From positions 1 to 37,159 of the forward strand of contig JAHLWH010000231.1 in NCBI GenBank assembly GCA_019058015.1: a DNA stretch of 37,159 bases. The letters are read 5' to 3'. Below are positions 2,239 to 32,603 of the stretch, one piece after another. This stretch comes from Promethearchaeota archaeon. GTDB lineage: Archaea > Asgardarchaeota > Lokiarchaeia > Sigyniarchaeales > SOKP01. Position 1 is the stretch's first letter, and each line of letters begins with the position of its first letter. The position numbers were made by a program, and so were the translations under genes. The notes beneath the pieces are model-generated. The model searched no databases. It was not told the origin of the DNA and was given only the letters and a program-made list of their open reading frames with translations.

Positions 2239-5076
2239 TTAATAATGTTCGATATTTGGAATTTTTCTTTGTTTTCGTCTGATAAAGTATTTTCTTAACT
2301 CGTCAACAACAGAAACACTAAATGCGCCAATAAAAACTACAACCCAATGATACCATTGTGTTAAGGGCATAATACGAAATGCAAGACCTAATGGGGTATA
2401 AAGTAATAACAATTGTAATCCAAGAGATAGTCCGACAGCCCAAAATAAATGTTTATTTGGAAACAAATAAAACGGTTTTATATTCGAAGTACATGTGAAT
2501 ACAAACAATAATTCGCAAATTACTAAGTTTGTAAATATTATTGTTTGAGATAATGTAATTGCATATTGCTGCGCAACTGGATCGGTTAAATAATTTATCA
2601 AATTAGGATCTATGGTACTCCAAAGAGGTATTAGATATATCCAGAGAATCAAATATAGACCAATATCAGTAATGGATGTGTAAATTCCAAGAAAAAGAAC
2701 TGGTCCTTTTATTTCTGGCATTAATGTAAAACCTTTTCGCGGTTTTTGTTTCATCACATCGGGGTCTGTAGGAGTTAATCCCAGAACCATTGCTGGTATG
2801 CCATCTGTTGCAATATTTAACCATAGAATTTGAATTGGTTCTAATGGAAGAGCCAAGAAAACATTTGCAAATAATTTCATCACTAAATACGCTGTTATTA
2901 TTAAAAAAATCTCATCAAAATTGGTGCTTAACATGTAACGAAAGAACCCTTTAGTTGTCTCAAATATTCCTCTCCCTTCTTCTATAGCATTAACAATAGT
3001 TGCATAATTATCATCAATTAATATCATTTCTGATGCTTCTTGGGTAACTTCTGTTCCTTTTAATCCCATTGCAACACCAACATGCGCACCTTTTACAGCT
3101 GGGGCGTCATTAACTCCATCACCAGTCATAGATACAACCATATCTAGTTCCTTTAATCTTCTTAATATTCTTATTTTATGTTCTGATGTGACTCTTGCAA
3201 AAACATTTACTGTTTTAACTTTTTCTCGTAGCTCATCATTGCTCATCTCCTCTAATTCTACACCTGTAATTGCTTCATCTGATTCAGTTAAACCAATTGC
3301 CTTTCCAATGGCGAGAGCAGTAATTTTATGATCACCTGTAATCATAATTGTTCTGATTCCAGCGCTTCTTGCTCCATTGATCGCTTCTAATACTTCATCT
3401 CTGGGTGGATCTATAATCCCAACTAATCCGATATAAATATAATCCTTTTCTACATCATTGATATTATAATCAGAATTTAATTCTTTATATGCAACTCCAA
3501 GAACTCTTAATGCATTCTTTGCTAACTCTTCATTTTTTTCTAAGATTTTATTTTTTAAAACATCAATTGGTTTTATTTCTCCGTTTAAAACAACCTTAGA
3601 GGCGTTTTTCATGAGTATATCAGGAGCTCCTTTTATATAAGCGATTATTTTTTCGTCTTTTTTTCCAATTACAGTCATCATTTTTCTATCAGAACTAAAT
3701 GGGATCTCATCCATTTTCTCGAAAGACTGATTTATTTTCCCTTTTAACGCCAACACTTTCATAGAAATCTCAGTTGGATCACCAACCACTGCCAGATCTC
3801 CAGTTTTTTGATCAATTATACTAACATGAGAATCATTACAAAATAAGCAAACTTCTAGAAACCTTTTAAGATCATTATTCATAACGATTGGTTTTTCATT
3901 TTCAAGAATTTGACCATTCGTATTATATCCTACACCTTCAACAGATAACTCTTTATCATCAATATATATTTTTACAACGGTCATTTCATTTTTAGTTAAA
4001 GTTCCGGTTTTATCAGAACAGATCACATTCACTCTACCTAATGTTTCAACAGCTGTTAATTTTCTTACTAATGCATTTCGATCCACCATTTTCCTCATCC
4101 CTATACTCATTACAACCGTAATGACGACAACTAATCCTTCAGGAACCGCCGAAACAGCTAAACTTATTGCTATTTTAAAAGCATCTATGATTTCTTCTAT
4201 CCCCTGTTCAGTTATTACAAAACCTTCAGTCAATAATATGAGAATGAATTCAAATGCAAAAACCGCTACACATATTATAATAATAATAATTCCTAATTGC
4301 TTTCCAAATTTATCTACTTCCTTTTGAAAGGGACTTGGTTCTATTACCTCTTCTTGTAATTTCACCGCAATTTTTCCGATTTCAGTATTCATTCCTGTTC
4401 CTATTACAATACCCTCTCCATTTCCTCTAGTTACTATCGTGTTCATATACCCAAGGTTGGTTCTATCTGCTAAAATCATCTTTTCATCTACAATATCCAA
4501 TTGTTTCTGAACTGGTTTCGATTCTCCTGTTAATATTGCCTCATCCACATAAAGTGAAAATTGTTTCGTAAGTCTTATGTCTGCAGGAAACTTATCTCCT
4601 TCCTCTACTAACACAATATCTCCAGGAACAACTTCTTCGACGCCTAACTCCTTAACTATTCCATTTCTTCGTACTTTCGCAAAATGAGGTGCTAATTTTT
4701 TTAAACTTTCAAGTGATTCTTCAGCCTTGTATTCTTGATAAAATCCTAATATTGCATTAATAATTAAAATGGAACTAATTACTATAGCATCTGTGTATTC
4801 AGATGACCAAGCTGATGCTCCTGGCCTAGAAGATTCCCAAACTCCTATAATAATAGAGATAATAATTGCAAAAATCAGCAAATAGACAAGAAAACTTTTA
4901 AATTGACCTATAAATATTTGCCAAGCAGTCTTTCCTTTTTCTTTAATTAACTCATTCCTTCCGTATTTTTCAAGTCTTACTTGAGACTCTGCTTGTGTCA
5001 GACCTGCTTCTAATGAGGTATTATATCTTTTTGCTACTTCTTCAATACTTATAGAATGTGCATTGATTTGTTCCAT
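2239..5076 (-). CDS. P2A (SERCA-like) Ca2+-transporting P-type ATPase, copy B, intact (945 aa)
   Basis: TGES, PEGL, DKTGTLT phosphorylation site, GDGVNDAPA hinge, M5 STNFDE, M6 ILWLNIATDG, M8 VICE; about 10 TM segments. Confidence 0.95.
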   Translation of the reverse strand: MEQINAHSISIEEVAKRYNTSLEAGLTQAESQVRLEKYGRNELIKEKGKTAWQIFIGQFKSFLVYLLIFAIIISIIIGVWESSRPGASAWSSEYTDAIVISSILIINAILGFYQEYKAEESLESLKKLAPHFAKVRRNGIVKELGVEEVVPGDIVLVEEGDKFPADIRLTKQFSLYVDEAILTGESKPVQKQLDIVDEKMILADRTNLGYMNTIVTRGNGEGIVIGTGMNTEIGKIAVKLQEEVIEPSPFQKEVDKFGKQLGIIIIIICVAVFAFEFILILLTEGFVITEQGIEEIIDAFKIAISLAVSAVPEGLVVVITVVMSIGMRKMVDRNALVRKLTAVETLGRVNVICSDKTGTLTKNEMTVVKIYIDDKELSVEGVGYNTNGQILENEKPIVMNNDLKRFLEVCLFCNDSHVSIIDQKTGDLAVVGDPTEISMKVLALKGKINQSFEKMDEIPFSSDRKMMTVIGKKDEKIIAYIKGAPDILMKNASKVVLNGEIKPIDVLKNKILEKNEELAKNALRVLGVAYKELNSDYNINDVEKDYIYIGLVGIIDPPRDEVLEAINGARSAGIRTIMITGDHKITALAIGKAIGLTESDEAITGVELEEMSNDELREKVKTVNVFARVTSEHKIRILRRLKELDMVVSMTGDGVNDAPAVKGAHVGVAMGLKGTEVTQEASEMILIDDNYATIVNAIEEGRGIFETTKGFFRYMLSTNFDEIFLIITAYLVMKLFANVFLALPLEPIQILWLNIATDGIPAMVLGLTPTDPDVMKQKPRKGFTLMPEIKGPVLFLGIYTSITDIGLYLILWIYLIPLWSTIDPNLINYLTDPVAQQYAITLSQTIIFTNLVICELLFVFTCTSNIKPFYLFPNKHLFWAVGLSLGLQLLLLYTPLGLAFRIMPLTQWYHWVVVFIGAFSVSVVDELRKYFIRRKQRKIPNIEHY

Positions 5077-6960: not shown

Positions 6961-7114
6961 GATATTCTCCTTTAATGATTATTAAATTAAAATTCTGCTA
7001 ATGAAATATAAAAACTTTTATGCTTAGAATTCTCATAAATTGGAGAAAAAAATCTCTCAAGAATTACCGCCATATTTGCATTTATTGCTTTTAATAAAAG
7101 AGTATGTTCAAAAT

Positions 7115-7555
7115 TCAGATAATTTCAATAGTGCCATCATTACCATTAACTCTAACTATAGTTCCATCTTCAATTTTTTCCAATTCAGAAAAATCAATTT
7201 GATCTACTATTGGAAATTGTAAATCAAAAAATATTTCTGCAGCCAAGGCACCTGAACTCATTAAAGGTTCTCCTTTTTCACATATTATGGCTTTTGGCCC
7301 AATCTTGCGCACAATTACCTCAAGTAAAACAAACCCTAACGTGGTTGTTCCTATCGGATAAGGGAAAATTAAGATTTTATCTTTTACGTCCTTTTTATAA
7401 AGTTCATGTGTTCTATCTGCAACCTTACATTTCTTACTAAATTGAACTAAAGGAAATGTAAAAGCGGCTGAGATACTAAAGGGTTGTTTTGTAACCATGG
7501 CTTTCCCTTCCACAATTCCGCTACTTAAACTTCTCCCTTTTAATATTTTAGGCAT
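7115..7555 (-). CDS. Aconitase X swivel-domain small subunit (DUF126)
   Basis: ILKGRSLSSGIVEGKAMV, KDKILIFP..GTT, GPKAII, IPIVD-like FPIVD and VRVNG motifs. The likely ATG is at 7555, overlapping the stop of the large subunit; the track's 7612 start is probably too long. Confidence 0.85.
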   Translation of the reverse strand: MPKILKGRSLSSGIVEGKAMVTKQPFSISAAFTFPLVQFSKKCKVADRTHELYKKDVKDKILIFPYPIGTTTLGFVLLEVIVRKIGPKAIICEKGEPLMSSGALAAEIFFDLQFPIVDQIDFSELEKIEDGTIVRVNGNDGTIEII

Positions 7556-8738
7556 TATTTTTACCCTCCGTTGCGACTTTAATGCATGTATCCAAGCTTC
7601 TATAAGAAGCATTGCTATAAAAACACGTTTTTGCAGAATTTGTCATAAGAGGTCTCGGTAAGGGTGTTAAAAGAGGACATAAAGTTGTCAATTTTGCTCC
7701 AGAATTTTTTAAAATTTCAAAATATTTAGATTTTTTAATTGAATCTCTTGTAAGTTCATTAGTGCATATCCAGAAATTAATATTGGATAAAATTTTTTTT
7801 CCATCAAGCTTGTTTAAAACAGTAATAACTTCTTCTTCATTTAATTGAGGACAACCTATGGTAACATTTTTTGGTGGATTTTCCCATTCGGTACTGTATT
7901 TTTCCTTAACTTCTTTAAGAGAATCTTTATCAATTTCAACAATTTCTTCTGGTTTATCATTTTGAAAGGCTGATTCAATATTTTTTGCTTCTGGAGTTTT
8001 TCCAATCACGTGGATTAAAGCAACTGCGCCAGTAGATGCAGAAGCAGAACCAAGATTTTTTAGATTATAAGTAGAAATTTTTTTAAGACCTTCAATAACC
8101 GGAATTTTATTTCCTGCAATTTCCCCGATTTTTAAACCTATTGATGTTAAATCATAAGTATCCCAATCATCAAAAAGAATTTTAAATAAAATCTTTCCTT
8201 TTCTGTTTTCACTTAAATGCAATCCATGGTAAGGAGTTTTCCCAGTAATAGCGCATGCAATATCTACTATACCGCCTTCTCGATTTGAACGCCCCCCTAA
8301 AACAGAATTGAGATAAATTACAGCTGAGGATTCAGACCATGCATAGTGTTCGCCAAATTGCGGTTTATTATCCAAGTAATATGGGGTACAAGTAAAACCA
8401 TAGACGCCTATTCTCTCTAAATCCCTCATCAATTGATCATGTAAAGTAAACATTGGGAGGATAACTTTTAATTCCTCGGCATAATTCAAATCGATAATAG
8501 GATCTGCTGTAGTCCTCACCTTTACTTTCAATCCTGCTTCTGCTGTTCTATTTAAAATTTCAGCAGCAGCATTGACAAAATTCAAACCAAAATTTAAAAC
8601 CGTATGAGCCGATTTAATTTCTATCAATTTATCCGCACCAAAAGAATCTCCTAATTTTACAATTAAATTCATCAATTTTGAAAGAATTTCACCTTGATTA
8701 CCATCTAATATATTTTCTTCTTCTCTCGTTAAATAAAT
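7548..8738 (-). CDS. Aconitase X catalytic large subunit (DUF521); either phosphomevalonate dehydratase or a hydroxyproline-dehydratase-like enzyme
   Basis: TCTPY, AWSESSAV, NSVLGGRSNREG, AITGKTPYHGLH and IGCP motifs. The family N-terminus (x-YLTREEE..LDG..GE) lies in frame upstream of the track's 8675 start and begins at ATT 8738. Confidence 0.85.
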   Translation of the reverse strand: MYLTREEENILDGNQGEILSKLMNLIVKLGDSFGADKLIEIKSAHTVLNFGLNFVNAAAEILNRTAEAGLKVKVRTTADPIIDLNYAEELKVILPMFTLHDQLMRDLERIGVYGFTCTPYYLDNKPQFGEHYAWSESSAVIYLNSVLGGRSNREGGIVDIACAITGKTPYHGLHLSENRKGKILFKILFDDWDTYDLTSIGLKIGEIAGNKIPVIEGLKKISTYNLKNLGSASASTGAVALIHVIGKTPEAKNIESAFQNDKPEEIVEIDKDSLKEVKEKYSTEWENPPKNVTIGCPQLNEEEVITVLNKLDGKKILSNINFWICTNELTRDSIKKSKYFEILKNSGAKLTTLCPLLTPLPRPLMTNSAKTCFYSNASYRSLDTCIKVATEGKNNA

Positions 8739-8905
8739 TCTAATACACCTATTTATTTCCTTTCAATTTTAAAAATTTGTTAATGATATTTATAAGTGTT
8801 TTTATTTTTATTTTGTATTTTGAATAAAAGAGAAACCTATTTTAATAAAATTCTTTTAAATAAATATCAATTAAAATATATCAATAATTCGAGATAATTG
8901 ATAAA

Positions 8906-22857: not shown

Positions 22858-22907
22858 TAATTCTAATTTTTGCTTAAATTTTATCCAGTTAGATTAAATG
22901 AGAGATA

Positions 22908-23393
22908 TTAAAAAGATGGTTTTTCTGAGTTTAGAGCTTCTAAGTGATCACGATTATATCGCCATACTCCAAGCCCAAGGCAAAAGAATCCCACACCAAA
23001 TGAGAAATATTTAAATATTCCCCCAATTTCCACATCAAGATAAGTTATTATTCCAGTATTAGTAATAACTTGATGAAATCCCTCAATTAACGTTTGTGTA
23101 AATGGATACAGAAAAGATCCTATAAAAAATATCAAGATGGTTATTATTCCTGAGAGAATGATCATTATATTCGCTTTCAAATGTAAATGGGTTTGGATTT
23201 GATAGCGAAAAAGAAGTAATACTCCGACGATAAAGGTGATATATGTTGATGCTTCAAGGAATCCCCACAAAGTGCCAACATAACTTGGTGGTGGTTCAAT
23301 CGCATAAAATCCCATAGGAAGAAGGAGTGTCAGACACTGAAACATCCCCAGTAGAGTTGCAATTGTATCTGTTATTGTTCGAAGGGTCTCCAT
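22908..23393 (-). CDS. Hypothetical membrane protein (about 4 TM)
   Basis: 161-aa ORF, GAGGA SD, four hydrophobic segments. Confidence 0.7.
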   Translation of the reverse strand: METLRTITDTIATLLGMFQCLTLLLPMGFYAIEPPPSYVGTLWGFLEASTYITFIVGVLLLFRYQIQTHLHLKANIMIILSGIITILIFFIGSFLYPFTQTLIEGFHQVITNTGIITYLDVEIGGIFKYFSFGVGFFCLGLGVWRYNRDHLEALNSEKPSF

Positions 23394-23562
23394 TGATTAT
23401 TCCTCATCAACTTTTTTCTTCTTTTTGTCATATTACTCTTTAATTCTCTTTTTTATAAATTTTCCCGTGTTTATTAAAATTACATTAAAGATAAATATTG
23501 TAAAAATAGTTGTTTAATTTAAATTACTTAATTTAAATATGTCTAATTTAGAAGAAATTCAA

Positions 23563-24075
23563 TCATAAAATTATGGATTCTAGTTTAGTAATAACTGCTT
23601 CTAAAACCTTTTGCTTAAATTTAATCCGACTAGTCTGAAAATTATGTTTATCCACAATTATTTGATCTTTCAAAGAGTAAGAAATATATACTAACCCAAC
23701 CGGTTTTAATTCAGTCCCCCCTGTAGGCCCAGCTATACCTGTTATTCCTATGACTATTTCTGAGTTAGCAATTCTTCGGATACCCTCTGCCATTTGCCTT
23801 GCAACAATATCACTAACAGCACCGAACTCCTTAATCATTTCTGGATCTACACCCAATATTTCACTCTTAGATTTATCACTATATGTTATAACTCCACACT
23901 CAAATATTTCTGATGAACCAGATAAGTTTGTTATCATATGAGAAAGATAGCCACCAGTAGCTGATTCTGCTATGCTTAATTTTAATCCTTTCTCTTTTAA
24001 TTTCTTTAAGAGACTTACCAACCTTTCTAGAATTTCTTTTTCATCAAATTTTTCGGAGATTTTCAAGATCCTCAC
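23563..24075 (-). CDS. pncC: CinA C-terminal domain protein / NMN deamidase
   Basis: AESATGG, GSSE, YS...K...LGV, GAVS and ITGIAGPTGG...KPVGLVY motifs. Confidence 0.9.
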   Translation of the reverse strand: MRILKISEKFDEKEILERLVSLLKKLKEKGLKLSIAESATGGYLSHMITNLSGSSEIFECGVITYSDKSKSEILGVDPEMIKEFGAVSDIVARQMAEGIRRIANSEIVIGITGIAGPTGGTELKPVGLVYISYSLKDQIIVDKHNFQTSRIKFKQKVLEAVITKLESIIL

Positions 24076-24917: not shown

Positions 24918-25496
24918 TTATTCAGTTTTCTTGTAATAGATTAATTCGGTAATCTTTTCGAAAATATCTGGAACATTAAGACCTGTTTTTGCGGATGTTT
25001 CGAAATATGGTGCATTTAACTTCTTAGAAAGATGCTCTGACATAGGAAGAATAATCTTTCTTTCATCTTTTAAATCAATCTTATTCCCAACAAGTATTCT
25101 TGGTACTGAAGAAAGACCAAATTTAACCGCTTCATTGAACCAATTGTTAACATTTGAAAAAGTACTACTTCTGGTAATGTCAAACACAAGAATAATTCCG
25201 TTTGCACCTTGATAATATGGTTTGTGAACCATGTAAAATTGAGGTTGCCCAGCGATATCCCAGAACATTAAATTAATTTCAACTTTCTCCTTTTCTTTTG
25301 TCTCAAATTGAAGAATGTACTTTAAGATATTTACGCCAATAGTCGGCAAATATTGTTTTGTAAATTTCTTTTTAATAAAATTGTTCAAGAGGCTTGTCTT
25401 ACCAACCGCAGGATCACCCAATATCAAAATCTTGTAGACAAATTCCGTGTTAGGTTTATAAAAGTGTAGTTTTTCATTATTTGAATCTTCTGACAT
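24918..25496 (-). CDS. Rab-like small GTPase
   Basis: G1 GDPAVGKT, G2 PTIGV, G3 WDIAGQ, G4 NKID, G5 ETSAK; RabF-like YYQGA and LVFDIT; no C-terminal Cys prenylation motif. Confidence 0.93.
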   Translation of the reverse strand: MSEDSNNEKLHFYKPNTEFVYKILILGDPAVGKTSLLNNFIKKKFTKQYLPTIGVNILKYILQFETKEKEKVEINLMFWDIAGQPQFYMVHKPYYQGANGIILVFDITRSSTFSNVNNWFNEAVKFGLSSVPRILVGNKIDLKDERKIILPMSEHLSKKLNAPYFETSAKTGLNVPDIFEKITELIYYKKTE

Positions 25497-26390: not shown

Positions 26391-27275
26391 TTGATTCAAT
26401 ACGTTAATATTTTAACTAATAATGGAAAATCTTTGTTATTCCGTAATTATGGTGATTCGGAGGTTGATAAAGATCTATTGGCTGGTTTTTTAAGTGCATT
26501 TTCAAGTTTTATGCAAGAAATTAGTCAATCAGAAATAAAATCTACTGAGACTGGAGATAATAAATTCTTCTATATCTCTGTTAAAGACATAATATTTGTT
26601 GTTTGTGCAGATAAAGAAGATGAAGATAAAGAAATAACCAATAAATTAAATAATATAGCCGAAAAATTCTTAGAAAAATTCGAAGATATTGTTAAAGATA
26701 ATAAATGGGCAGGTAATCGCTCAATATTTAAAGAATTTAACGAAGAACTTGATAAAATTGTTCTTGGCGCGATAAAAGTCTCAATAATTGGATTTGGAGG
26801 GGTTGGAAAAACAACACTTCTTCATTTAATTTGTGGGAAAGATATTAATTTAGAATATGTACCTACAATGACTGCTGATATTACTACTTTTGATGGGTTT
26901 GGAGGTAAAAGAGAAGTTGTTTTCTGGGATTTTGCGGGTCAAGAAAATTTTCAGAGTTTATGGACAAGCTTACTTTCAGGTACAGAAATTGCTTTATTAG
27001 TAACTGATTCCACATATGAGAATGTAAATGGTTCAAAAAAAATAATACATGATATTTTGGATAAATATTATGAAGATGAATTCGTTATCGGGATAGCAAA
27101 TAAGCAAGATTTAGACAATAGATTAACTCCTGAATTTTGTGAGAAATTACTCTCTACTGATAAAAGACAAATAAAAACTTATGGTATGGTTGCAATAAAT
27201 ACTGTTTATCGAGAAAAAATTCATGAAATTTTAAGAAATGCAATCGAAACAATAGAAAAAAAACATATGAAATAA
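26391..27275 (+). CDS. Longin-like domain fused to an Arf/Ras-family small GTPase
   Basis: N-terminal MIQYVNIL...GKSLLFRNY...LLAGFLSAF longin-like pattern; GFGGVGKT, PT, WDFAGQ and ANKQD motifs. Confidence 0.88.
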   Translation: MIQYVNILTNNGKSLLFRNYGDSEVDKDLLAGFLSAFSSFMQEISQSEIKSTETGDNKFFYISVKDIIFVVCADKEDEDKEITNKLNNIAEKFLEKFEDIVKDNKWAGNRSIFKEFNEELDKIVLGAIKVSIIGFGGVGKTTLLHLICGKDINLEYVPTMTADITTFDGFGGKREVVFWDFAGQENFQSLWTSLLSGTEIALLVTDSTYENVNGSKKIIHDILDKYYEDEFVIGIANKQDLDNRLTPEFCEKLLSTDKRQIKTYGMVAINTVYREKIHEILRNAIETIEKKHMK

Positions 27276-27320
27276 AAAATTTCTAATTTTTAATTTTAAT
27301 AAAAGGTTTGTGTAATAAAT

Positions 27321-29054
27321 ATGGAATTTAAAATTGAAAAATTAAATTTCGAGGAATTTGAAGATTACAATTTAATAAGATTACCTAATTTAAATGAAGA
27401 GGAGCAAAAAATCGTTGATCCCATTATTCCCCCAACCTCAGGTTTAAGAATTAAACTTTTTGATTTAATAGAACCTTCAGGATCATATGTTTTAACTAAT
27501 CATAAATTATATCTCTATCTTCGCGTTGCTAAAGCGATCAGCATCAAATTTCAAGAAGATTTTAGGGAAGAAAATCCGAAAATATTAATTGTTTCCGATT
27601 GTCGTCCAAGTAGTAATTATTTAATAAAACTCTGTGCTCAATTGTATGCTTATGATGGTTTTGAAATTTTCTTTCAGAAAAATGGTGATGGTAATTCCTT
27701 GATGTCTAGTCCTTATGCTAGTGCATCAGTTGCATTATACGATGATATAAATCTGGCTTTAATGATTACTGCATCCCACAATCCATTAGATTGGAATGGA
27801 CTTAAAGTCTATATGAAATATCCAATTCCTATTTCGGGAGATTTAATGAAACAAATTTCTTGTATTGCACTTTCCTTAAATGAGATAAAATTTAAGAAGA
27901 AATTTAAAGAAAATAGAATTGGTGCAGAACAGAAAAATAATGAGTATATTAAAGATTTACTTTCTGAAATTATTGAAATTCAAGCATTAAAAAATGCGAA
28001 AATTGTTATATGGCCATATTTAGGTAAGGCAAGGGGTATTGTGAATCTTTATAAAGAATATGGAGCAGATATTACCTTAATAGATGAAACTATCAACCCA
28101 CCTAATCCAATTAAGGAGATAAGGAGGGAGAAGTTAATTCAAACGATGGAATCTGTTGATTCAAAAATTGCGATATTATTAGACGCTGATAGAGATCGAC
28201 TTGCATTCTTTTTAAAGGAAGAAAATGGATATAATCTCTATATACCAAACGAGCTTTATACTGCCATGCATAATATTCTTGCAAAGGAATTCTCTTGCAA
28301 AATAATTAACATAAGAACTATTCCAAGCGATTATAGAGGTGACCATACTTCAATTCTAAATATTTTGACAGGTGTAGGATATAAACATTTAGGTGTTATT
28401 TTGTATTTCTTATTTGGGGTTGAAGTAGATCAATCAAAAATTGATACAGGAATATTATATGTAGAAGATAATGATAAATTTGTAAAAATTAATAATTCAA
28501 CACCACTCAAAGAAAGTATAAGAAAAATAGTTAAGAATAAAGAACTTACTAATGAAAACTTAATAATTGCAGCATGGGAGGAAAGCGGGGGTCATACATT
28601 CAACATATTAAAAGTTTCCAAAAATGATAACACGGAAGAGTATGATTTTGAAACGCCCTTTCCTATAATTGCAGATAAATATCCCGTTCCAGCATTAATA
28701 ATTTTAAGTGAATTAATAGCCAGAGGATATCGAATTTCCGATGCAATAGATTGGACAATTAAGGGAATAAATAGGACCATTCCCGCTGTTGACGAGCAGA
28801 AAATCAATATAATGAAAAATTTTGAGAAGAATGATGGAAAATCCATAAAAATCGATAATAAAAATTATCAAATTAAAAGTTTATCTGATAATAATAATAA
28901 GATTGATACTTATCGACTAAAAAGTGAGGATTCTATTCTATATTTCAGACCTTCGGGAACAGGTCCTGATGTCAGGTTTTACATCTTTGGGAAAAGAGAA
29001 ACTCACTTAGAAGAAATAAAAAGAGTAATGGAATTTGTAAATAATTACAAATAA
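27321..29054 (+). CDS. Alpha-D-phosphohexomutase (PMM/PGM/GlmM superfamily)
   Basis: TSGLR, TASHNP (phospho-Ser), DADRDR (metal loop), EESGG and RPSGT motifs. Confidence 0.92.
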   Translation: MEFKIEKLNFEEFEDYNLIRLPNLNEEEQKIVDPIIPPTSGLRIKLFDLIEPSGSYVLTNHKLYLYLRVAKAISIKFQEDFREENPKILIVSDCRPSSNYLIKLCAQLYAYDGFEIFFQKNGDGNSLMSSPYASASVALYDDINLALMITASHNPLDWNGLKVYMKYPIPISGDLMKQISCIALSLNEIKFKKKFKENRIGAEQKNNEYIKDLLSEIIEIQALKNAKIVIWPYLGKARGIVNLYKEYGADITLIDETINPPNPIKEIRREKLIQTMESVDSKIAILLDADRDRLAFFLKEENGYNLYIPNELYTAMHNILAKEFSCKIINIRTIPSDYRGDHTSILNILTGVGYKHLGVILYFLFGVEVDQSKIDTGILYVEDNDKFVKINNSTPLKESIRKIVKNKELTNENLIIAAWEESGGHTFNILKVSKNDNTEEYDFETPFPIIADKYPVPALIILSELIARGYRISDAIDWTIKGINRTIPAVDEQKINIMKNFEKNDGKSIKIDNKNYQIKSLSDNNNKIDTYRLKSEDSILYFRPSGTGPDVRFYIFGKRETHLEEIKRVMEFVNNYK

Positions 29055-30648
29055 TGCTGTCATCCAAGAAAAAATTCTAAGGATCAATCTCAACTTTTCT
29101 TTTTTTTATTCTTCGATTCTTTTTACGCCTCCAGTATCCTTGGAGCGGCGCTTTAATGAGACCTTTATTAACCCATCTATCCTTGTAATGTTGTATTCTT
29201 CCATAACTTACTCCTAAAGATTTGGCAATGTCTGTCATTGGCTTCAACCATAAGAGAGTTTCTAATTCTCCTGGTGTAAGTTTAAATTTCCTCATCTTTT
29301 CTCTTGCCTTATTAAGTTGTACTAACCTTTGTTTTATACCTGTGAGACGATTTCTCTTTCTTTCCAAACTTTTTTGGTAGTTATCCAACATTTCATTGTA
29401 TAAATCAGCACCTAAAAATAAACCATTTACAGTACCTTTAATTACACGTCCATCAGGCATTATCCCTTCAGAAATACTCCGAGTAATTTTGCAATTAATA
29501 TTAAATAAATCTTTAATTTTCTCCAGAAATCTTTTACTTCCACAACATATCTCAGAAGTATTTGCTATCCCATCACCGTCATAAAACCCTAAAACAAAAG
29601 ATAAATATTGTTTTCGAGATTTTAATTTAGGGAGTTCTATATTTTTCGATTTCGCTTTACCTGCAATGAATCCATGACATTGAAGCCAATACGCAAATTC
29701 TTTATTATCAAACCTAACAATAATGAACTCTTTTACCTCACCATCTTTGTTTCTATATCGCTTTACTTGTCTATATCTTATATCATAACCAATTTCATCA
29801 GTAAACCTTTCTAACAGTTCTATGTCTTCTGAATTACACCCAACTCCAAATTCAAAAGAATCAGAATCACCAATTTTTGATAACCATCCTTCAGCAAACA
29901 ACCAACCGAGCCAATAAGCCTTTTCTTTCGTGTCTATCCGCTCAAAATAATTCACTTTAAGATTAGGATGATGCTCAAAAACAGTTATACCGTGCTTATA
30001 CTTTTTCAAGTTGTTTAGCTCCCGATATTTCTCTAAAAATTTAATAGTTTTATCTTTAACATCTCGTAACAATAACCTATATTCTTTATCAACGGCCTCT
30101 TTCTTCCATAAACTAAATCTAGATTTTAGGAATAATTCATAATCACCCAACATATCTTGTACAATTTCATTACCCTTATTTTTTTTTCTTCTTATATGGC
30201 TTTCTACTTGACCTAGGTATAGACTTAACATTGTATCAGTTAATTTTCCTCCCCATAAAACATCTAAAGGAACAATGCTTTCTAAATTTTTTCTTATATC
30301 TTCAAATAAATCATTTGCACTGTATTTTTTTAATTCCTCAATCTTGTTTTCATGCATATCAAAATTTCCAATTATTTCTTCTAATTTCTCCTAAATGAAT
30401 TTTTTGTAATTCATAGTTTTTTTTAAAAAGTATTTAAATAGAAAAAATTTTTTTTCAAGATTTCTTTTTATTTGATCTTTAATTTTAAATATTTTCTTAC
30501 ACATATTATTAACAGGAGTCTTAAGCAATTTACTAATTTTATTTTACAAAAAGATCCTTATCTGGTATATAATGAAATAATTCTTGATACCCTATTTTTC
30601 TATTTGTCTAAACGATTAGATCTTTTTTTTAATTTTATATATTTGATA
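28899..30648. mobile_element. Putative ~1.75-kb free-standing homing-endonuclease element carrying a replacement 3' end of the phosphohexomutase gene
   Basis: LAGLIDADG gene bracketed by two diverged copies of the host gene's last ~52 codons at an offset of 1750 bp; boundaries are approximate. Confidence 0.65.
29077..30357 (-). CDS. Two-motif LAGLIDADG homing-endonuclease-like protein with a C-terminal HTH-like domain
   Basis: IDTKEKAYWLGWLFAEG and FVLGFYDGDG motifs; C-terminal KPMTDIAKSLGVS...PLQGYW; no intein splice motifs. Confidence 0.85.
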   Translation of the reverse strand: MHENKIEELKKYSANDLFEDIRKNLESIVPLDVLWGGKLTDTMLSLYLGQVESHIRRKKNKGNEIVQDMLGDYELFLKSRFSLWKKEAVDKEYRLLLRDVKDKTIKFLEKYRELNNLKKYKHGITVFEHHPNLKVNYFERIDTKEKAYWLGWLFAEGWLSKIGDSDSFEFGVGCNSEDIELLERFTDEIGYDIRYRQVKRYRNKDGEVKEFIIVRFDNKEFAYWLQCHGFIAGKAKSKNIELPKLKSRKQYLSFVLGFYDGDGIANTSEICCGSKRFLEKIKDLFNINCKITRSISEGIMPDGRVIKGTVNGLFLGADLYNEMLDNYQKSLERKRNRLTGIKQRLVQLNKAREKMRKFKLTPGELETLLWLKPMTDIAKSLGVSYGRIQHYKDRWVNKGLIKAPLQGYWRRKKNRRIKKRKVEIDP

Positions 30649-30807
30649 AAAATTAATATCTTTGAATTAAAGAGAGATCAAGCAAAATTATATTTTAGAC
30701 CAAGTGGAACCGGACCTGATGTCAGATTTTATATCTTTGGGAAAAAAGAAACTTATTTAGAAGAGATTAATACTGTTATGAAAATTATAAAAGAGAAATA
30801 CTCTTAG
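30649..30807 (+). pseudogene. Orphan duplicate 3' end of the phosphohexomutase gene
   Basis: KINIFELKRDQAKLYFRPSGTGPDVRFYIFGKKETYLEEI compared with KIDTYRLKSEDSILYFRPSGTGPDVRFYIFGKRETHLEEI at 28899-29054. Confidence 0.88.
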
Positions 30808-30808
30808 A

Positions 30809-32404
30809 CTATTCTTCATCTATTACTTCTGTTTGTTTAATTCCAGGAATTATTATTTTGTTTTTTTCAATTCTTAAAATATTATATCCCTGAAGTTTTT
30901 TCATAATTTTTAATAAATTCTCCTCATCCCATTTTAGTCCTTTTAAAAATTCTTCTTTTGTCATGGGTTTTTTATTTATAGTAAATAATAAAAACTCTTT
31001 ATCTTTATCATCCAATTCAATTTCTTGAAACATGTATATTCTTCCCCTGCCTAACATAAAAGAATCTTTAATCATTTGCATTTCTTGGAATTTATGGAGA
31101 ACATCTAAAATCTTTTTAACATTTATCTTTGGATAATCTTCTTTTATATGTTCATAAATTTTTGAAAATTGCATTAATCCTCCATTTAAGATTAGATTTT
31201 GCTCATAATATTCAAGTATTTTTTCCGAAATTTGTTCTCTAGTGATTTCTTGGGACGACGGTTTAGTATCGAAATAAGCTATTTCCTCCAGCTTTTGCAT
31301 AGCAATCTTTAAATCATCTATATCATTTAACCTCTGATCTTCAATTTTTTTTAGTTTTTGTTGTTTTAAACGCATTTTTTCTTTAAATTCATCTTCTCTC
31401 TCTTTTTGACGGTGTCTTTTTCGTTCAAAATCTTCTTTTTCTTGTTTAATTTGATTTTCTATGAATTCAATCCATTTTTTCCTCTCATCCACATTTCCAA
31501 AGCCGTCAATTTTGATGTTTTCATCATATATTGTTAGAAGTTCTTTTTCTTTTAATGAATTTATCACCTTCAAAGCAAAATCATTATTCCATTCAGTAAG
31601 TTCCATTAATTTTTGAGGAGTTAAATAATCTTCTGCATATGCAAATGCAAGAAGAACCTTTTCAGATTGATTAAAACTTAATTTTTCCCTTTTAAAAACA
31701 ATTAAACTCAACTCTGGATTGACTTCAATAAAATCATTAAAAAATCCCGTCTCTTTCATTATATTAAAAATTGTTTCAAAATCTTCATTCTTTAATTGAG
31801 GAACACTTTTTAAGGAATGAAATATCAATCTATCGTTAGGTATTATTTTATATTCTTTTAAGTTTAATTCATTTATTATAGAATTGATTTTTTGAGACAT
31901 TTTATCAAAAAACAATCCTCTCGCAACATCAACTGTCTTTTGATCCTTTAAATATTTCGTTTCATCCAAACTTTCCAACATTTCTATTGCGCTTTTCAAA
32001 TCTGTTAAGTCCTTTTGTCTTTCTTCTTCAGAAATGGGCATTGCAGACGATAAATCTTGGAAAAAAGTTCGATATTTTACATCTGCTTGCTGAATAATTT
32101 CTACCTCAGATTTTCTTTCTTTAAAAGACTCTTCGGCAAGTTTCGTTCTTTGAGAGGTTTTTTCGGCAATTTCACTTTCAGTTTCAGCAATTATTTGAGA
32201 AATTTGAGCTAATTTTTCCATCATAACATTTTTCTTTTCTTTTAAGGCATATTTTTCAAGTATAATGTCTAAGGATTTTTCTTTTTTCTCAAATTCTTCA
32301 GTTAACTGCATTTTTTGTATTTGTTGATAATAGAAAAACGTCAATAATAAGAAAAACGTCAATAAACCGCTGGATATGATGAATACAACTAGAAAGGTTG
32401 ACAT
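30809..32404 (-). CDS. Membrane-anchored coiled-coil protein with two EAP30/Vps22-Vps36-like tandem winged-helix modules
   Basis: N-terminal TM and coiled coil; module 1 ends LTPQKLMELTEWNNDFALKVINSL; a charged helix follows; module 2 reads NGGLMQF...ELDDKDKEFL...MTKEEFLKGLKWDEENLLKIMKKL. Confidence 0.65.
   Translation of the reverse strand: MSTFLVVFIISSGLLTFFLLLTFFYYQQIQKMQLTEEFEKKEKSLDIILEKYALKEKKNVMMEKLAQISQIIAETESEIAEKTSQRTKLAEESFKERKSEVEIIQQADVKYRTFFQDLSSAMPISEEERQKDLTDLKSAIEMLESLDETKYLKDQKTVDVARGLFFDKMSQKINSIINELNLKEYKIIPNDRLIFHSLKSVPQLKNEDFETIFNIMKETGFFNDFIEVNPELSLIVFKREKLSFNQSEKVLLAFAYAEDYLTPQKLMELTEWNNDFALKVINSLKEKELLTIYDENIKIDGFGNVDERKKWIEFIENQIKQEKEDFERKRHRQKEREDEFKEKMRLKQQKLKKIEDQRLNDIDDLKIAMQKLEEIAYFDTKPSSQEITREQISEKILEYYEQNLILNGGLMQFSKIYEHIKEDYPKINVKKILDVLHKFQEMQMIKDSFMLGRGRIYMFQEIELDDKDKEFLLFTINKKPMTKEEFLKGLKWDEENLLKIMKKLQGYNILRIEKNKIIIPGIKQTEVIDEE
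32332..32365. repeat. 16-nt direct repeat with an 18-nt period in the TM-coding segment
   Basis: AGAAAAACGTCAATAA at 32332-32347 and 32350-32365, encoding LLTFFL/LLTFFY. Confidence 0.8.
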
Positions 32405-32603
32405 TTTTCTTCAGAATTATTCCTTTTTTTTAATTCTATTAAAATAATAATTTTCTTTCTTAGTTATAAATCATTTCTTATTAATTGTAGAATTTAGTTA
32501 ATATATTTAAAAATTTGATAATTAGAATGTTATAAATTAATAAAATATGTTTCGTTTTTAATGGATATTAGACTTTAAAATGAATATTTAAACTGAGTTA
32601 AAT

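Follow-up and report, generated by a model that had tools for sequence, protein, structure and literature searches.

A putative free-standing LAGLIDADG homing element that carries a replacement gene end on an Asgard archaeal chromosome

Homing endonuclease genes that stand outside introns and spread together with a replacement for part of their host gene are already known from fungal mitochondria, where the hybrid atp6 gene of Allomyces is reportedly one such case. Two reports describe C-terminal duplications of cob and atp6 with degenerate LAGLIDADG and GIY-YIG open reading frames (ORFs) between or beside the copies (PMC6279837), and partial duplications of atp6 and cox1 that adjoin free LAGLIDADG genes (PMC7487136). 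Intronless homing by the seg and mob genes of phage T4 (PMC2790892) is related in kind: a free-standing gene spreads by double-strand-break repair with co-conversion of its flanks, and carriers are protected by sequence differences in the neighbouring gene. Here we describe a comparable arrangement in a 37,159-nucleotide stretch of AT-rich DNA (29% G+C; hereafter the window) from a Promethearchaeota archaeon, one of the Lokiarchaeia-type Asgard archaea. A 1.75-kb insert at the 3' end of a phosphohexomutase-like gene in this window is, in our judgement, probably a free-standing homing-endonuclease element that, as it spreads, takes with it a substitute for the 3' part of the gene it occupies.

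Two gene ends around one endonuclease gene

The host gene (27321 to 29054, plus strand) is an unbroken ORF of 577 amino acids with Pfam PGM_PMM_I and II domains; its NCBIfam matches to archaeal GlmM are weak and below the cut-off. The end of this gene occurs twice in the window, at an offset of exactly 1750 base pairs. The working tail consists of the final 51 codons and stop (28899 to 29054, plus strand), and an orphan tail, detached from the gene body, holds what appear to be the final 52 codons and stop of the original gene (30649 to 30807, plus strand), within a 111-residue ORF that ends at 30807 on the plus strand. Between 28899-29054 and 30649-30804, 108 of 156 nucleotides are identical, compared with 44.9 ± 5.8 matches and a maximum of 67 when the same working segment is placed at 4601 other offsets in the window. 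The best 80-nucleotide window has 66 identical positions, and a tblastx comparison of the 4.3-kb locus with itself recovers the tail match at E = 1.9e-18.

An 18-residue core is the same protein in both copies although 9 of its 54 nucleotides differ, in seven codons and always silently. Because all nine differences are silent, both copies probably evolved as parts of working genes. The 47 aligned codons of the pair comprise 17 identical, 14 silently different and 16 residue-changing ones, and the last 15 nucleotides of the working tail are those of a genome from a different genus (G059). The silent changes include a Ser codon that is TCG in one copy and AGT in the other. Deliberate recoding was considered for this switch and rejected, as both codon classes are found across the family; the difference is only a sign of deep divergence. 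An original prediction, made from the window by itself, had claimed this duplication around an antisense LAGLIDADG gene, the identical core with its nine silent differences and Ser switch, and the match of 66 in 80, and every figure was reproduced.

The two tails bracket a single intact gene for a 426-residue double-motif LAGLIDADG protein with a C-terminal helix-turn-helix (HTH) region (29077 to 30357, minus strand). Its stop converges on that of the mutase gene across a gap of 22 nucleotides (29055 to 29076), and on its 5' side lies an AT-rich spacer (30358 to 30648), whose right edge at 30648/30649 is the return of native host-gene sequence; no similarity to the mutase gene was found in the spacer to the left of 30649. 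A TATA-like TTTAAATA, a candidate spotted by eye only, lies in the spacer about 75 nucleotides upstream of the endonuclease ATG. Beyond the orphan, a convergent gene of 531 amino acids without a family match (30809 to 32404, minus strand) is native and marks the original end of the locus. As had been predicted for a native end, a single nucleotide separates the orphan stop (30805 to 30807) from the stop of this neighbour (30809 to 30811), and in the two closest genomes without the endonuclease gene (G001 and G002) the neighbour gene directly follows the mutase gene with the stops in the same arrangement.

The endonuclease gene lies outside any intron or intein, being on the opposite strand and downstream of the continuous 577-residue host ORF. 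The predicted absence of introns, inteins, integrases and transposases was upheld: no Rfam intron family and no other RNA family reached threshold in 27000-32500 (a single weak snoRNA-like match had an E of 0.43), no tRNA gene was found across the window, and neither integrase nor transposase was found in the insert or among the flanking ORFs.

As a single sequence, the protein matches Pfam LAGLIDADG_3 (E = 0.006; 17.2 bits against a cut-off of 22.5) and HTH_23 (E = 0.002), both below cut-off, and its N-terminal region of about 130 residues belongs to no known family. In an alignment of 20 homologs, motif 1 (LGWLFAEG) has E156 in at least 90% of sequences and D in one, and in motif 2 (LGFYDGDG) residues D260, G261, D262 and G263 are invariant. 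The profile built from these homologs matches solved structures in the PDB, namely 1mow (an I-DmoI/I-CreI chimera; E = 1e-4), 2dch (4e-4) and I-AniI (0.027), and PHROG 4645, annotated as an endonuclease, is matched at E = 1.6e-17. Look-alikes retrieved by a protein language model (scores of 0.90-0.92) are all LAGLIDADG_3 clusters, mostly from phages, some with an HTH and some with WhiA-type Pfam labels. With its two motifs, their acidic residues and the profile matches to solved enzymes, the protein can be assigned with good reason to the double-motif LAGLIDADG family. Its gene is present in a single copy in this genome (G000).

The same architecture was recovered independently. It is found in a congener (G004) on a 912-kb contig, with an endonuclease 99% identical, and on a metagenome contig (L101). 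Contigs from four runs in four studies also carry it, one of which covers 28092-31800 and so the whole element; partial contigs cover 28877-31800, 28943-30819 and 29177-30722. Furthermore, 20 runs from seven sediment studies (marine, seep and vent) each contain at least 75% of the sampled sequence words. Because these sources agree, the structure of the locus is not an assembly artefact.

Native and imported parts of the mutase gene

A search of a large protein collection with the orphan peptide returned a full-length mutase of 579 amino acids, P0003, whose last 52 residues match the orphan at 51 positions. This is the kind of allele that the original prediction expected among relatives, one with a tail like 30649-30807. 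The mutase was compared in three segments, residues 1-404, 405-526 and 527-577. In this order, the gene of the window and P0003 share 379 of 404 (94%), 79 of 122 (65%) and 31 of 51 (61%) residues, while P0003 shares 73, 72 and 76% with the congener G003 and 58, 57 and 59% with G059. For the gene of the window itself the values are 74, 58 and 63% with G003 and 57, 66 and 78% with G059. P0003, which is collinear with G003, is thus evenly diverged from both, unlike the gene of the window, which is therefore the recombinant, with a breakpoint near residue 408 (at about 28545). On these segment identities it is native up to about residue 408 and imported thereafter. Because P0003 joins a 94%-identical body to an orphan-type end, the orphan is the native mutase end, and the original allele resembled P0003.

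The imported 3' segment (28545 to 29054, plus strand) accordingly covers about 170 codons, which move along with the endonuclease gene. Its start is approximate and set by the last block of residues in common with P0003, and DNA divergence from G002 steps up from about 1% to about 7% at 28502. As such, the predicted foreign origin of the working tail and native origin of the orphan are supported, but the predicted extent of about 52 codons is not: about 170 codons were imported.

In a tree of residues 405-565, P0003 groups with G003, P0004 and P0006 (support 90/88) and the gene of the window with G001, G002 and G004 (100/99). A tree of the tail only pairs the orphan with G003's working tail as sisters (98/98), and in a tree of residues 380-577, G003 falls outside the group of this gene (81/73). 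Trees alone are no proof of foreign origin; the proof lies in the contrast of segment identities with P0003.

The mutase proteins of G001 and G002 are 92-93% identical to that of the window and have a single tail, of which the 5' part is of the working type, including the TCG Ser codon, and the end is orphan-like. The change to native sequence comes after HLEEI in G002 and after VMEFV in G001. Both genomes also hold the imported residues 405 to about 565. Because foreign residues are followed by a return to the native end at two different points, G001 and G002 are best read as former carriers that lost the endonuclease gene through recombination between the tail copies. The original prediction had counted endonuclease-free relatives with the first tail as grounds for refutation. 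Such relatives exist in the literal sense, but they are former carriers rather than naive alleles.

Among the 135 genomes of the family, a related endonuclease gene stands beside the mutase gene only in G000 and G004. At this site the element is polymorphic: G004 and L101 are occupied, and G001, G002 and G003 lack the endonuclease. In run X6, an occupied contig (depth 36.1) was assembled beside a contig that joins 29038 to 30790 in the manner of the G001 junction (depth 34.5). Identity between G000 and G004 reaches 100% over 28501-29500 and 98-99.6% across the element; to the left and right it drops to the 90-94% or so seen over most of the window. Compared with G002, divergence is about 1% at 28130-28500, about 7% at 28502-28919 and 1-4 mismatches per 100 nucleotides from 30840 onwards, and these steps bound a tract from 28502 to about 30750 that has a history separate from that of its surroundings, where divergence is put overall at 1-3%.

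The copy in L101 has an internal stop and differs from the endonuclease gene of the window by 16 nonsynonymous and 3 synonymous changes, compared with 27 and 33 for the mutase gene. The orphan tail of L101 has lost 43 nucleotides, and that of G004 has a K-to-E change. Together, these comparisons show that the element has recently moved or been exchanged among related species, and that it decays and is lost. Every stage of a homing cycle is represented: naive (P0003), occupied and intact (G000, G004), decaying (L101) and lost (G001, G002).

Several other tail-like sequences were encountered. P0001 is a 99-residue ORF on a 3.2-kb contig that ends in the exact orphan tail, preceded by 47 more residues of native type; it could be either a naive gene end or a longer orphan left by an insertion with another boundary. 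Isolated degenerate fragments of mutase tails lie far from the mutase gene in G073 (contig C118; L087:3984-4190) and G079 (contig C36; L089:3266-3379), one of them with its loop mutated to SGKVPD and neither with an endonuclease gene nearby. Additional tail matches in G054 and G117 were dismissed as truncations at contig ends.

Outside the element, the genes immediately upstream of the mutase encode a Ras-family GTPase (24918-25496) and a longin-domain plus Roc/Arf-like GTPase (26391-27275), both of them typical Asgard eukaryote-like genes. The stretches 7067-8801 and 22871-23568 are missing from the collinear position in G004. Their ORFs look ordinary: two that overlap (375 and 165 amino acids), and a membrane-like one of 161 amino acids with no Pfam match.

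Related endonuclease genes at other host genes

Homologs of the endonuclease with 30-50% identity occur in 60 of the 135 genomes of the family, often in several copies and often broken by internal stops. They are also found in metagenome-assembled genomes (MAGs) labelled Odin-, Hel-, Hod-, Hermod-, Thor- and Atabeyarchaeia. To find duplicated ends, the two flanks of each locus were compared with each other by tblastx. Convincing direct duplications of a 3' tail around the endonuclease gene were found at 4 of 51 further loci in genomes, 8 of 30 in metagenomes and 11 of 80 in the genome collection, which, as some loci occur twice in these sets, amounts to about 20 distinct bracketed loci.

Duplicated gene ends around homologous LAGLIDADG genes, proposed at the outset as a check, were thus found at five host genes besides the mutase: an AMP-binding (ACS-like) gene, an SNF2 helicase, an E2 (UQ_con)/RWD gene, a radical SAM gene and a DeoC/LacD aldolase. 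At all bracketed loci the order is gene body, working tail, endonuclease gene and orphan tail. The endonuclease gene is antisense at the mutase, ACS, radical SAM and E2/RWD genes and sense at the SNF2 and aldolase genes.

With the 3' ends of the six host genes as queries, 52 locus-by-host-gene matches were obtained among 162 loci. The endonuclease tree clusters by host gene, with five label changes, the minimum, against a mean of 9.2 after shuffling (none of 200 shuffles was as low), a statistic that is inflated by near-copies. All 16 tail pairs that were measured have many silently differing codons.

The SNF2 gene repeats the pattern of the mutase. Its endonuclease-free congeners G007 and G019 have the orphan-type tail, and the occupied alleles of two genera have another tail in common, together with upstream residues unlike the native ones. 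The wider claim of a strategy, rather than a single event, is strengthened by the five further host genes and by this SNF2 orphan, which again matches the tails of endonuclease-free congeners. At the ACS-like gene, the orphan of G002 equals the working tail of G004 in protein.

The ACS-like tails come in two types, RGALRNPES and RSALRNPTS; the first is working and the second orphan in G002, and the roles are reversed in L106 (loci L106 and L037). This swap hints at reciprocal replacement by two lineages of the element. Furthermore, the ACS-like gene of G004 (C8:199453-199578 and 202522-202680) and that of G001 (L146:1317-1409) are followed by one or two degenerate orphan tails with stops. No endonuclease gene of the same family was detectable near these tails, which look like footprints of older invasions.

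The DeoC/LacD aldolase genes beside the endonuclease gene in four genomes contain an insert of 30-32 nucleotides between the conserved GVD and MGRNIFQ (approximate sites L050:1204-1235, L211:2644-2675, L209:1661-1690 and L210:2694-2725). The inserts hold stop codons and can form hairpins, and in three of the four the frame is also shifted. The hairpin arms vary between genomes yet still pair, with fold z-scores of -2.1 to -3.2, and the duplicated aldolase tail starts immediately after the insert. Possible readings of the insert are a small archaeal intron, a junction scar whose tail is expressed as a peptide of its own (gene fission) and a regulatory hairpin.

Some endonuclease homologs lie inside open frames of 600-1358 amino acids (for example G073:C90, G090:C97 and G107:C235) and may be inteins or in-frame fusions with host genes. 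Three homologs (L202, L214 and L231) are on contigs of MAGs labelled Nanopelagicaceae and Cloacimonadota, for which misbinned archaeal contigs seem more likely than bacterial carriers. Among the candidate brackets, L130 was left uncounted for its paralogous acyl-CoA dehydrogenase neighbours, as were L111, L179, L187, L201, L218 and L224 (low-complexity or too short), L046, L052 and L073 (weak or inverted) and L222 and L233 (uncertain).

Mechanism, alternatives and known systems

A homing cycle could account for the locus as follows. The protein would cut a naive allele somewhere within the 3' region that is replaced, and the break would be repaired from an occupied chromosome. The left crossover would fall in the conserved gene body and the right one in the orphan tail or the neighbour gene, so that repair would copy in the foreign tail and the endonuclease gene while the host gene stays intact. 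The target site would be destroyed, lost or recoded by the replacement. Our best guess for the cut is near the start of the orphan, at about native codon 527/528, rather than in the conserved loop, because the orphan keeps the loop in protein; as a candidate target, this edge of the orphan is no worse than the RPSGT-coding core that the original prediction had favoured. Immunity of the occupied allele is a prediction from the sequence differences. Loss would occur by recombination between the tail copies and would leave a working chimeric tail, as in G001 and G002.

Several observations weigh against this account. Cleavage and the target site are proposals, and the present-day protein may have no activity. 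Were the conserved core the target, an occupied chromosome would still carry the site, since the orphan has the core unchanged in protein. Approximately unbiased (AU) tests did not reject a single genus-level clade for the C-terminal part (p = 0.127 for residues 380-577, 0.438 for the tail only and 0.416 for residues 405-565 with P0003). No donor of the imported segment was found: nothing beyond the crown group is more than 73% identical to residues 405-577. The Ser codon is TCG in the working tail and AGT in the genus that its tail end resembles, and because of this mismatch the imported piece is itself a mosaic or comes from an unsampled lineage. That the P0003 locus is an empty site is suggested by its continuous native C-terminus, which is known as protein sequence. 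The shorter side of the X6 joint is only 30 nucleotides long and was placed at 88% likeness. Finally, most loci of homologous endonucleases have no detectable orphan tail.

The alternative that survives best, although we regard it as improbable, is ordinary homologous or illegitimate recombination after gene transfer; the LAGLIDADG gene would then be a passenger, or would encode a domesticated DNA-binding protein, and would have had no role in the rearrangement. Domestication of LAGLIDADG folds as regulators is known, for example in WhiA, and WhiA-type labels do occur among the look-alikes. The HTH region would suit such a role, the nuclease activity is a prediction with a Pfam LAGLIDADG match below cut-off, and the differences among the three endonuclease copies are mostly nonsynonymous. 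A passenger would not be expected to recur in the same four-part order at six unrelated host genes, however, nor each endonuclease clade to be tied to one host gene. The family is also patchy and multi-copy with many broken copies (60 of 135 genomes with a match), both catalytic acidic residues are conserved, and the peak of identity between species is centred on the element, all of which argue for a homing element.

Much less probable is the reverse polarity, in which the first tail is native and the element was inserted four codons before the stop, supplying a short new end, then the endonuclease gene and finally the orphan as a foreign partial tail. We initially held the first tail to be native and the orphan foreign, on the strength of the tails of G001 and G002, which carry the first tail in their 5' part including the TCG codon; the 5' part of the orphan also resembles the more distant G003. 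The comparison with P0003 led us to reject this reading. There, a crown-type body (94% over residues 1-404) is joined in frame to an orphan-type C-terminus and is collinear with G003. Moreover, G001 and G002 hold the non-native residues 405 to about 565, hence descend from occupied alleles, and they switch to the native end at different points.

Many integrase-borne islands restore the 3' end of their target gene at tRNA genes, and the direct duplication of a gene 3' end around inserted DNA would also fit an integrative element that used site-specific recombination in this way. We give this explanation slightly less credence still: neither an integrase nor a transposase was found in the insert or its vicinity, the insert has one gene only, the repeats, with 72% identity over 47 codons, are unlike att sites, which are near-identical, and the imported tract reaches about 350 nucleotides beyond the repeat. 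A chimeric assembly or collapsed repeat, which the original prediction had named as a refutation and which a MAG of 283 contigs might invite, has practically no standing, being contradicted by G004 (912-kb contig), L101 and contigs from four studies, one spanning 28092-31800.

Beyond the mutase locus, we consider it about an even chance that Asgard archaea harbour a large active family of LAGLIDADG-HTH homing endonucleases, with lineages each dedicated to the 3' end of one gene, that spread by means of foreign, domain-sized gene ends. If this is true, the family would be a regular engine of mosaicism between genera in housekeeping and eukaryote-like genes such as the SNF2 helicase and E2/RWD, with occasional gene fission, and orphan tails would be datable footprints of past invasions. 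At the present locus, a selfish strategy in the style of mitochondria and phages appears to be at work on chromosomes of those archaea that are nearest to eukaryotes, with all stages of invasion, decay and loss caught in public data. As domain-sized pieces of conserved genes are moved between genera, single-gene trees and concatenated markers from such genomes can be chimeric; in the present case one enzyme has two histories, that of its first 404 and that of its last 173 residues. Orphan tails are annotated as small hypothetical ORFs and could be used to trace past invasions. The family would also supply natural sets of endonuclease, naive site and immune site, all predicted, for at least six targets, and possibly rare cutters.

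The closest described systems are those of fungal mitochondria, since there too a free-standing endonuclease gene lies between a working end and a leftover C-terminal copy. Features of the fungal type that are found here are a foreign working end with a displaced native end (at the mutase and SNF2 genes, and in protein at the ACS-like gene) and a presence/absence polymorphism at the site with tracts of discordant identity around it. Unlike the fungal elements, the present one resides on an Asgard cellular chromosome and its family targets nuclear-type housekeeping and signature genes. Its protein is extended by an additional N-terminal region and an HTH at the C-terminus, its import is a whole C-terminal domain of about 170 codons, and one family serves at least six host genes across several Asgard classes.

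The identity peak and divergent tract at this locus look like the co-conversion tracts of intronless homing in phages. The T4 elements differ in that they are intergenic and are not known to leave an orphan gene end, are members of the GIY-YIG and HNH families and have as hosts phage genomes that recombine in co-infection. Archaeal intron-encoded LAGLIDADG enzymes such as I-DmoI belong to the same superfamily, and the profile matches to the I-DmoI/I-CreI chimera and to 2dch cover both motifs. Enzymes of the I-DmoI type reside in rRNA introns, where splicing spares the host, whereas no intron was found here and a replacement tail would spare the host gene. Integrative elements that carry a 3' end likewise keep the host gene whole and leave a displaced partial copy on the far side, but they use an integrase and short near-identical att repeats, in contrast to the diverged repeats and the lack of a detected integrase at this locus.

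A literature search that covered few subscription journals yielded no account of elements of this kind from the chromosomes of Asgard or any other archaea, and neither did passages of PMC11529989 and PMC8813620, two papers on Asgard mobile elements. The strategy itself is already known from fungal mitochondria, and what is new is its Asgard chromosomal setting, the architecture of an N-terminal region, LAGLIDADG and HTH, the domain-sized replacements and a family with multiple targets.

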